DNA of 64,000 bases, from IMG/VR virus record IMGVR_UViG_3300035703_000044, positions 1 to 64,000 of that record; one strand, written 5' to 3'. The notes beneath the pieces are model-generated. The model was not told the DNA's origin. It saw only the letters and a program-made list of their open reading frames with translations, and searched no databases. Below are positions 37,817 through 39,632 of this stretch, piece after piece (the stretch's first letter is position 1; every line of letters starts with the position of its first letter). The translations under genes were made by a program, and so were the position numbers. Origin of the DNA: a virus.

Positions 37817-38187
37817 GTTACGAATTAAAAGATTGGTTGAATTCCGTTAACTTTACAAAAGAAGACTTGTCTGAGGATATTAGTTCATATCCACCATTTA
37901 TCATCAATCGTTGTCTTTCTGGACATATTGACTGTATTCTTTTTGCAAATGAAATGAATATGTATTCCTTTCTTGATAAAGATATGCAGTATTATTTCTA
38001 TCTAAATAGTCTTAGGAAACGGAAGAGATTTTCTCCCTGGCTCCGAAAGGATAAAGTCAAAGATTTAGAATGCGTTAAACAATACTATGGTTATAGTAAT
38101 GAGAAGGCATCTCAAGCTTTGAAGATTCTAAATAAAGAACAACTAGATTTTATTAAACAACGACTTGAAACTGGCGGAACAAAATGA
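37813..38187 (+). CDS. gp62: clamp loader small subunit gp62
   Basis: 'YPPFIINRCLS', 'RKRKRFSPW', 'YYGYSNEKA'. Confidence 0.95.
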   Translation: MSYELKDWLNSVNFTKEDLSEDISSYPPFIINRCLSGHIDCILFANEMNMYSFLDKDMQYYFYLNSLRKRKRFSPWLRKDKVKDLECVKQYYGYSNEKASQALKILNKEQLDFIKQRLETGGTK

Positions 38188-38624
38188 CTACTCAAACAAT
38201 TGAACCACAAGTAAACTGGTCTCCCGATATGATGGTGGAGGTCGTTTTGAATGAACCTGATGATTTTCTGAAAGTTCGTGAAACTTTGACTCGTATCGGA
38301 GTTGCATCCCGTAAGGAGAAAAAACTCTATCAATCCTGTCATATTCTCCATAAACAAGGTAGATATTACGTTGTTCACTTCAAAGAGTTGTTTGCTCTTG
38401 ATGGTAAACATGCAAATCTTACGGTGAATGATGTTCAACGCAGAAACCGTATTACTCGTCTTCTTTCTGATTGGGGACTGATTACTGTAGTGAAAGAAGA
38501 CTCTATCTCTGATATTGCACCTCTGAATCAAATCAAGGTTCTTGCATACAAAGATAAGAACGATTGGATCCTTGAACAAAAATATAATATTGGTAAGAAG
38601 GGAAAGAGTCAGGAAACCGAATAA
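38184..38624 (+). CDS. regA: translational repressor RegA
   Basis: 'DDFLKVRETLTRIGVAS', 'LYQSCHILHKQGRYYVVHFKELF'. Confidence 0.97.
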   Translation: MTTQTIEPQVNWSPDMMVEVVLNEPDDFLKVRETLTRIGVASRKEKKLYQSCHILHKQGRYYVVHFKELFALDGKHANLTVNDVQRRNRITRLLSDWGLITVVKEDSISDIAPLNQIKVLAYKDKNDWILEQKYNIGKKGKSQETE

Positions 38625-38630
38625 TTTTGT

Positions 38631-38655
38631 AGGGAGTTCAACACTCCCTTTTTTT
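38631..38655 (+). terminator. intrinsic terminator after regA
   Basis: AGGGAG-N7-CTCCCT followed by a T-run. Confidence 0.8.
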
Positions 38656-38665
38656 ATGAATGTTG

Positions 38666-38731
38666 TATAATTAGTATTGGATGCCGTAAGGATCCACAAA
38701 ACACAAACTCGCTTTTAAAGGAGCTACAATA
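38666..38731 (+). promoter_or_regulatory. hsp20 -10 box and structured 5' leader (ROSE-like thermometer candidate)
   Basis: TATAAT 38666; GNRA hairpin 38679-38695; TCGCT (38709-13) can pair with AAGGAG (38718-23). Confidence 0.55.
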
Positions 38732-39166
38732 ATGACTAACCTTGCACGTTATACTGCATCGGATCTTCCTACTCTTCTAGATAAGATCACTCGTAACAGT
38801 ATTGGAATGGATGAGTATCTTGATCGTATTTTCAATGTTCATGAAAGTACATCAAACTATCCACCATACAATCTTGTTCAGATAAGTAATGTAGAATCTC
38901 ATCTAGAGATTGCTCTTGCTGGATTCAAAAAGGAGGAAGTTCATGCGTACACAGAGTATGGAAAACTTTATGTCGAAGGACAAAAATCCGATATTGAATC
39001 GGACAGGACGTTTATCCACAAGGGTCTGGCTCAAAGAAGTTTTAAACGAGCGTGGACTTTATCCGACGACACAGAAGTTTCCAACGTCACATTTGAAGAT
39101 GGACTCCTCAGAATTGAACTGAAAAAAGTAGTTCCTGAACATCATGCACGTAAAGACTATATCTAA
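38732..39166 (+). CDS. hsp20: small heat shock protein Hsp20
   Basis: 'YPPYNL', 'EIALAGF', 'HKGLAQRSFKRAWTL', 'FEDGLLRIEL'. Confidence 0.95.
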   Translation: MTNLARYTASDLPTLLDKITRNSIGMDEYLDRIFNVHESTSNYPPYNLVQISNVESHLEIALAGFKKEEVHAYTEYGKLYVEGQKSDIESDRTFIHKGLAQRSFKRAWTLSDDTEVSNVTFEDGLLRIELKKVVPEHHARKDYI

Positions 39167-39190
39167 ATAGAACTGAATATCGTCGGCGCA

Positions 39191-39242
39191 GGGGAACGAC
39201 TGGCAAAATCCAGTTGACTTCCCCCTTTTTTATTGGTATACT
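39191..39242 (+). terminator. terminator hairpin overlapping a sigma70-like promoter
   Basis: GGGGAA-CGACTGG..CCAGTTG-AC-TTCCCC plus T-run; TTGACT(39214)-N17-TATACT(39237). Confidence 0.75.
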
Positions 39243-39263
39243 GATTGAAGGCATTGGAGTATT

Positions 39264-39632
39264 ATGACTGTAAAACTTGCACTTTTAAAGTCTGGTGAGG
39301 ATGTAATATCTGACATACAGGAGATGGTTGTAGTTGATGATGATGGTAACGAAAAAATAATCGGGTACTTTTTTACAAAACCATGTGTAGTAAAACTTCT
39401 CAATCCAGACAACCTTTCGGATCAAAATGGAAATAAAGCTTTTGAGATAAGTATGTTTCCTTGGTTCCCTCTTTCAAAAGACACAAAGATTCCAGTTACC
39501 GCTGATTGGGTAGTTACTTTGGTAGAACCAATTGAAAAACTAAAAACAATGTATACAGAAGGAGTTTTAGACTATGGAAAACGTAAAGATTCTAGTTCTA
39601 ATGAACAATCAAATTCTGATATCTCAGATTGA
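39264..39632 (+). CDS. conserved Sm-like hypothetical protein
   Basis: 'VKLALLKSGEDVISD...PW.PLSKD..DWVVT.VEP'. Confidence 0.7.
   Translation: MTVKLALLKSGEDVISDIQEMVVVDDDGNEKIIGYFFTKPCVVKLLNPDNLSDQNGNKAFEISMFPWFPLSKDTKIPVTADWVVTLVEPIEKLKTMYTEGVLDYGKRKDSSSNEQSNSDISD

Follow-up and report, generated by a model that had tools for sequence, protein, structure and literature searches.

A conserved two-hairpin leader of the ROSE type upstream of the small heat-shock protein gene hsp20 in T4-like cyanophages

Introduction

T4-like cyanophages rank among the most abundant marine viruses, and hsp20, which encodes a small heat-shock protein (sHSP), is one of their core genes (PMC3037559). A ROSE-like RNA thermometer had been proposed, from the letters of the DNA alone, in the leader of one such gene, which lies in the 64,000-nucleotide stretch analysed here (the window), itself part of a 93.8-kb record from a T4-like cyanophage. 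The question raised by this locus is whether the short segment in front of the hsp20 start codon is a translational control element of the ROSE type and, if it is, to what it responds.

The gene order in the window is regA (38184-38624), hsp20 (38732-39166), two small open reading frames and the gene for DNA polymerase gp43 (from 39828), and the regA-hsp20-gp43 region of Synechococcus and Prochlorococcus myoviruses is arranged in the same way. The best NCBIfam models for the Hsp20 product are IbpB and IbpA (E about 1e-22), and the closest isolate, judged by this protein, is Synechococcus phage DSL-LC03 (81% identity). In a published phylogeny, cyanophage sHSPs group with the bacterial class A (IbpA type) and not with the sHSPs of their hosts (PMC3827213). 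When genome contigs were searched for bacterial relatives of Hsp20, only phage-derived contigs and two distant Firmicutes genes were returned, and no donor was found. Cyanophage hsp20 together with its leader was also seen on a 2-kb contig binned in a 'Psychromonas' MAG (L089 / G001:C405) and on a 189-kb contig of a Prochlorococcus single-cell assembly (L090 / G002:C3), both of which are probably phage DNA within the bins.

The features of the hsp20 region, with their positions in the window, are as follows.

38631-38657, + strand: intrinsic terminator 3′ of regA, with a 7-bp stem (38631-38649; AGGGAG/CUCCCU), a loop and a T-run
38666-38673, + strand: -10-like or T4-late-like box TATAATTA (TATAAT at 38666-38671, extending to 38673)
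38678-38696, + strand: hairpin I, U-GGAU-[G]-CC GUAA GG-AUCC-A, with bulged G38683 and a GNRA loop
38697-38707, + strand: CA-rich linker CAAAACACAAA, predicted to be unpaired
38708-38723, + strand: hairpin II, CUC-[G]-CUU UUA AAG-GAG, with bulged G38711 and the loop UUA
38724-38734, + strand: 8-nt spacer and ATG start codon (ATG at 38732), predicted to be unpaired
38732-39166, + strand: hsp20, encoding an IbpA-like class A small heat-shock protein of 144 amino acids, with NCBIfam matches

Results

The TATAAT, the GNRA-capped hairpin, the A/C linker and the CUC-G-CUU-UUA-AAG-GAG segment on which the original prediction was built are all present in the sequence where it had placed them. In hairpin I, four lower pairs (G38679-C38695, G38680-C38694, A38681-U38693 and U38682-A38692) are separated by the bulged G from two upper pairs (C38684-G38691 and C38685-G38690) that carry the GUAA loop (38686-38689), and U38678-A38696 is an optional closing pair. 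Hairpin II has three pairs below its bulge (C38708-G38723, U38709-A38722 and C38710-G38721) and three above it (C38712-G38720, U38713-A38719 and U38714-A38718), by which the anti-Shine-Dalgarno (anti-SD) sequence UCGCU (38709-38713) pairs with the Shine-Dalgarno (SD) sequence AAGGAG (38718-38723). The base of hairpin II is closed by C38708-G38723, the first pair after the bulge is C38712-G38720, and only A-U pairs close the loop above; in the short ROSE elements of Pseudomonas, the SD/anti-SD core has G-C pairs on both of its flanks (PMC3669281). The minimum free energy of the single sequence is -11 kcal/mol, compared with a mean of -8.2 for shuffled sequences (z = -1.11; 27 of 200 shuffles fold as well). 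ViennaRNA slightly prefers a shifted register, GCUUU/GGAGC, in which the SD is covered too. The predicted SD pairing of hsp20 ranks in the middle when set against 34 other leaders in the window, a comparison in which starts were crudely called and SD words differ.

The evidence for a leader module is comparative, and its conservation and covariation are far beyond chance. Loci encoding hsp20 were collected with four protein queries in IMG/VR and among phage isolates, with start codons assigned by tblastn, giving 247 leaders (170 of them unique over the last 70 nt) that span 37-94% protein identity. The conservation across cyanophage hsp20 leaders on which the original prediction depended was found throughout this set: all 247 carry the module, with an anti-SD of one of two kinds, termed here leader classes A and B. 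Among the 170 unique leaders the anti-SD is CUCGCU in 148 and CUUGCU in 10, while the remaining 12 are of class B with A(U/C)GCU. Together, CUCGCU and CUUGCU cover the two variants that the ROSE motif U(U/C)GCU allows; where C is replaced by U, a G-U pair remains. When RNAalifold was applied to a plain MAFFT alignment that had not been fitted to any structure, both hairpins and the bulged G were returned; G38711 is predicted to be unpaired in the consensus, and the bulged G is invariant in all leader classes. In 223 of the 247 leaders, 7-8 nt separate GGAG from the ATG. The consensus fold and the 247-leader comparison thus agree with the earlier description of UCGCU paired with the SD around a bulged G, 8 nt before the ATG.

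A covariance model (R1, alignment A1) built from 40 leaders gave a single match at each locus for 97 of 100 sources, with the hsp20 ATG as its 3′ end in every case, and just one real match in the whole 93.8-kb phage record. In the alignment fitted to this model, 96.7% of cells are paired and double changes occur in 9 of 13 pairs; neither the score nor the percentage of pairing was matched by any of 500 shuffles, and pairing was down to 37-61% once the partners were slid out of place. When representatives were compared in pairs, the leader proved better conserved than the coding sequence in 88 of 105 cases. Run on 121 picocyanobacterial (Cyanobiaceae) genomes, the model gave five weak matches (20-24 bits), which we regard as chance since none of them precedes an hsp20 gene.

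The two hairpins vary in different ways. Hairpin I, with its bulged G, is found in 182 of 183 unique leaders in 24 arm combinations, the G standing just before a C(C)/G(G) core, and compensatory changes occur in 6 of its 7 pairs; its loops are mostly UUCG, GAAA or GUAA. The linker that follows is kept as ACA(A/C)AA(U/C)(A/C)(C/A)AAA across relatives, and that it might serve as a ribosome standby site is only a guess. In hairpin II of class A, both strands are invariant and hence without covariation. There are 42 distinct loop variants of hairpin II, free in both length and sequence; nearly all retain the stem-forming bases, and in some a GUAA or GCAA tetraloop caps a 2-bp upper stem. Given the A/U-rich sequence, the upper A-U pairs could arise without selection. 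Class B leaders have the form (A)GAY-[G]-CUU nnn GAG-RUC(U), in which the GAG of the SD pairs with CUU above the bulged G and a new lower stem is formed with bases downstream of the SD. This lower stem covaries (AGAC/GUCU, AGAU/AUCU and AGAU/GUCU). Two different arrangements therefore bury the SD beside a bulged G, which argues that occlusion of the SD is the property under selection.

These observations bear on whether anything need be sensed at all. In a constitutive element, hairpin I would guard the 5′ end of the mRNA from decay and the weak SD hairpin would set a fixed, moderate level of translation. The low predicted stability of hairpin II and the position of hairpin I at the predicted 5′ end are in keeping with such a role, as is the fact that 5′ stem-loops are known mRNA stabilisers (PMC3669281). 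Many sequences could make a fixed dampener, however, and a constitutive role leaves unexplained both the invariant, ROSE-specific UCGCU with its bulged G and the rebuilt SD-masking hairpin of class B, which has a bulged G as well. We consider it unlikely.

The pair adjoining the bulge of hairpin I is most commonly U-G, and the constraint therefore acts on the RNA of the + strand and not on DNA. This is relevant to the conserved ACTCGCTT... stretch, for which two other functions can be imagined, namely that of an operator for the translational repressor RegA and that of a DNA site, a Pho box for PhoB. In the window, regA lies directly upstream of hsp20. T4 RegA binds the region around the AUG, but that region is not conserved among the hsp20 leaders, and P-SSM4, S-RIM2 and P-SSM5 retain the leader without an adjacent regA. 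The homologous sequence of S-PM2d, ATTCAAACTCGCTTAAATA, has been listed as a putative Pho box, but the S-PM2d hsp20 upstream fragment was not bound by PhoB and the gene was unresponsive to low phosphate (PMC10976474), and these published gel-shift and expression results lead us to reject a Pho box. The putative site is also variable in length and sequence over its 3′ half, it is located downstream of the -10 box, and the dominant G-U pairs again place the constraint at the RNA level. A function of the stretch as either kind of site is very improbable.

The position of the promoter-like box relates the hairpins to the transcript. The intrinsic terminator behind regA has an equivalent, of different sequence, in front of most related leaders. 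In the 22 nt upstream of hairpin I, 182 unique leaders give the consensus T-A-T-A-A-(A/T)-T-A, the end of which lies 6 nt ahead of the 4-bp core of the hairpin, and no sigma-70 -35 partner of the TATAATTA box was found in a promoter scan. From the position of the box, the hsp20 mRNA probably begins at hairpin I, with a start at about 38678-38681. The upstream consensus TATAA(A/T)TA resembles the late box of T4, TATAAATA. In the window and in loci L001-L254, the box takes the form TATAATTA, (G)TTAAATA or CTATAAATA, at a constant distance from hairpin I, a pattern that makes it possible that hsp20 is read from a T4-late-type promoter in many of these phages. In a few loci (L132, L141, L143, L151 and L160) the box is absent and CCCCTTCAACGCC... 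stands in its place. In Synechococcus virus S-PRM1 (L083:121-250), the promoter-like box and hairpin I are separated by an additional long hairpin composed of GGATCAT...ATGATCC with an inner GTTAACCACAAAG...CTTTGTGGTTAAC stem. Downstream of hsp20, the intergenic region 39167-39263 contains a G/C hairpin with a T-run (about 39196-39230) in front of the open reading frame at 39264; a sigma-70-like promoter, TTGACT-17-TATACT with TG (39214-39242), is a good match and overlaps this hairpin.

A search of 801 nt with Rfam models gave only one notable match, to ROSE_3 (RF02523), which we take to be the Pseudomonas family. The match covers the full model at 38675-38737 with 22.8 bits (E 0.029). ROSE_3 was again the top model for the relatives, with 23.7-38.5 bits and a best E of 6e-5. 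The gathering threshold of 43 bits was reached by no phage leader (best 38.5), and by Rfam's rule the leaders are therefore not ROSE_3 members. The validated E. coli ibpA thermometer, which scores 100.4 bits on ROSE_2, scores only 20.8 on ROSE_3, and the phage leaders are thus at least as close to ROSE_3 as is one proven ROSE element. Aligned to positions 1-69 of ROSE_3, they are in the same register in both hairpins, including GAU-[G]-CC...GG-GUC of hairpin I. They share with the ROSE_3 layout the two hairpins, the bulged G of hairpin I before the C-C/G-G core, and CUC-G-CUxx paired with the SD. More generally, they have the ROSE features of a 5′ UTR position on an IbpA-type gene, an SD hairpin with U(U/C)GCU and a predicted bulged G opposite the SD, and also an additional 5′ hairpin, hairpin I, which is supported by covariation and would be non-melting by analogy. 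The likeness to ROSE put forward in the original prediction therefore stands as regards the motif, the bulged G and the top-ranking Rfam model, whereas the score of 22.8 bits remains below the 43-bit cut-off of the family.

The Y-[G]-CC...GG-R core of hairpin I is invariant across the phages and recurs in the E. coli ibpB leader and in the ROSE_3 consensus, and the corresponding position of ROSE_2 is occupied by a bulged G. The bulged-G hairpin thus stands out among the conserved features of ibp-type leaders.

The original prediction had described the SD stem as short and of uncertain stability, and hairpin II is indeed weak. Its nearest-neighbour energy is -3.1 kcal/mol at 20 °C, -1.1 at 37 °C and -0.5 at 42 °C, and the median across leaders is -1.1 kcal/mol at 37 °C, compared with -4.1 for the E. 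coli ibpA core; CUUGCU variants are positive. For the window, the calculated energy of opening the SD is 5.4 kcal/mol at 20 °C and declines monotonically to 3.1 at 42 °C. With the validated E. coli ibpA element, by contrast, the energy calculated in this way increases on warming, and so the method cannot judge thermosensing. Non-canonical pairs are known in ROSE hairpins and are absent from the nearest-neighbour energy model. Given this omission and the behaviour of the E. coli control, the energy model cannot settle the mechanism. The low calculated stability would suit hosts that live at 10-30 °C; alternatively, hairpin II may be unable to repress without help. A lytic phage also has no evident need for heat-induced translation when its hosts live in thermally stable water, which weighs against a thermometer.

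A second layer of control, through the protein itself, is plausible. E. coli IbpA represses its own mRNA and that of ibpB via stem-loops in their 5′ UTRs, and for this it requires R93 and Y34, which are lacking in IbpB (PMC10474464; bioRxiv 10.1101/2020.04.20.050740). The phage leader might likewise be mainly an Hsp20 operator, to which free Hsp20 oligomers would bind at the stem-loops and repress translation until misfolded or aggregating proteins, such as the bulk virion proteins late in infection, titrated Hsp20 away and released the block. Temperature would then be secondary, although an operator of this kind can coexist with a thermometer. In an alignment with E. coli IbpA and IbpB, 245 of the 247 phage proteins have the counterpart of R93, and all 247 that of Y34; the invariant Y-[G]-CC...GG-R core represents a greater sequence constraint than a generic stabiliser needs; and hairpin II alone looks too weak for tight repression. 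On the other hand, the proposed binding is drawn by analogy from IbpA, and the two residues may be kept for chaperone or oligomer reasons. That the leader acts mainly in this way is conceivable but rather doubtful.

A more specific form of this idea, which we put forward tentatively and by analogy with IbpA, is that the leader is the sensor of a viral feedback loop in which Hsp20 would bind both hairpins until misfolded or unassembled virion proteins drew it away. If so, chaperone synthesis would track the folding load of infection, instead of or besides temperature, and Hsp20 would recognise its mRNA by the Y-[G]-CC/GG-R core that the phage and bacterial ibp leaders have in common.

Discussion

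The leader of the cyanophage hsp20 gene is, on the comparative sequence data, a real and conserved element of the ROSE kind. The explanation that we favour, and regard as reasonably probable, is that it is a short, two-hairpin, ROSE-type translational control element that was probably co-inherited with a proteobacterial IbpA-like gene and kept throughout the Kyanoviridae. The original prediction had viewed it as a minimal phage-encoded thermosensor. It does not look like something that the phage devised anew: both modules are also present in the ROSE_2 and ROSE_3 consensus and in the leader of E. coli ibpB, and the element was therefore most likely inherited with the gene.

We propose that transcription starting at hairpin I would provide the mRNA with a stable 5′ stem-loop bearing an invariant bulged G, which would stabilise the message and help the weak hairpin II to fold. 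In hairpin II, UCGCU would pair with AAGGAG around the bulged G, such that the 30S subunit would be hindered when the hairpin is closed; warming, or some other event, would then open it and translation would rise. Occlusion of the SD in vivo is expected from the modelled pairing, and a role in temperature sensing is suggested by likeness to known ROSE elements.

The presence of such a conserved leader points to translation as the step at which these phages adjust chaperone production, whether to temperature or to folding load. We found no description of an RNA thermometer on a cyanophage gene in the literature searched, and in a 2024 review, phage RNAs that switch structure are still a matter of speculation (PMC10884466). 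The present results extend ROSE elements from alpha- and gamma-proteobacteria to viruses of cyanobacteria, OM43 methylotrophs and Pseudomonas, and imply that gene and leader travelled together. At about 55 nt, the leader is also a small RNA that is tractable by obvious mutants.

Viruses outside the cyanophages share the arrangement. The same two-hairpin leader precedes the sHSP genes of the OM43 (Methylophilales) phage Melnitz (L270:137-199; 34.1 bits on ROSE_3) and the Pseudomonas jumbo phage Callisto (L272:127-184), in which the anti-SD motifs are CUUGCU or CUUGCG, while it is not obviously present at the sHSP gene of Vibrio phage IBT_VpB-34 (L271). The thermometer of phage lambda cIII mRNA is a phage-encoded mRNA structure that makes translation temperature-dependent. 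It acts by switching between two alternative structures, and translation is lower at high than at physiological temperature; it does not serve a chaperone gene, and it is unrelated to the hsp20 leader in sequence and mechanism.

Thermometers are also known on the sHSP genes of cyanobacteria, namely that of Synechocystis hsp17 and the ROSE-like 'avalong' UTR of Anabaena variabilis (Cimdins et al. 2014, PMC4152365). The avalong UTR has a ROSE-like anti-SD, as does the phage leader, but differs in its bulged U and its large first hairpin, whereas hsp17 is in a class of its own with near-perfect pairing. The phage protein, moreover, is not of the cyanobacterial type (PMC3827213).

The E. coli leaders contain close counterparts of both phage hairpins. 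The ibpB leader (within the ibpA-ibpB intergenic region of strain K-12, L266:1899-1976, - strand) has a hairpin AUGCUC-[G]-CC GUCA GG-GAGCAU, with a bulged G like that of hairpin I, followed by CUC-[G]-CUU cuuag AAG-GAG located 8 nt before the AUG, the stem of which is identical to that of hairpin II in the window. In ibpA (ROSE_2, RF01832) the corresponding segment is CUC-[G]-CUG AUUU CAG-GAG, followed by GCUA. The E. coli leaders differ in having three stem-loops and SD hairpins that are longer and more stable than those of the phages, and the phage model R1 gives the ibpB leader only 17.5 bits.

In Pseudomonas, the ibpA 5′ UTRs of 61-62 nt are proven thermometers with two hairpins, of which hairpin II melts and alone suffices for control while hairpin I does not melt, and expression is shut off permanently when the bulged G is deleted (Krajewski, Nagel and Narberhaus 2013, PMC3669281). 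The phage UTR is shorter, at about 53 nt, and its upper stem of 2-3 A-U pairs is much weaker than the four pairs, including G-C, of Pseudomonas; it is also viral and preceded by a T4-late-like or -10-only box, compared with the sigma-32 promoter of the bacterial gene. Nevertheless, the phage leader and the Pseudomonas ibpA/ROSE_3 type both consist of two hairpins only, in the 5′ UTR of an IbpA-type gene, with an unpaired linker and an unpaired AUG, and in both the CUC of hairpin II pairs with the GAG of the SD, followed by a bulged G and a short upper stem.
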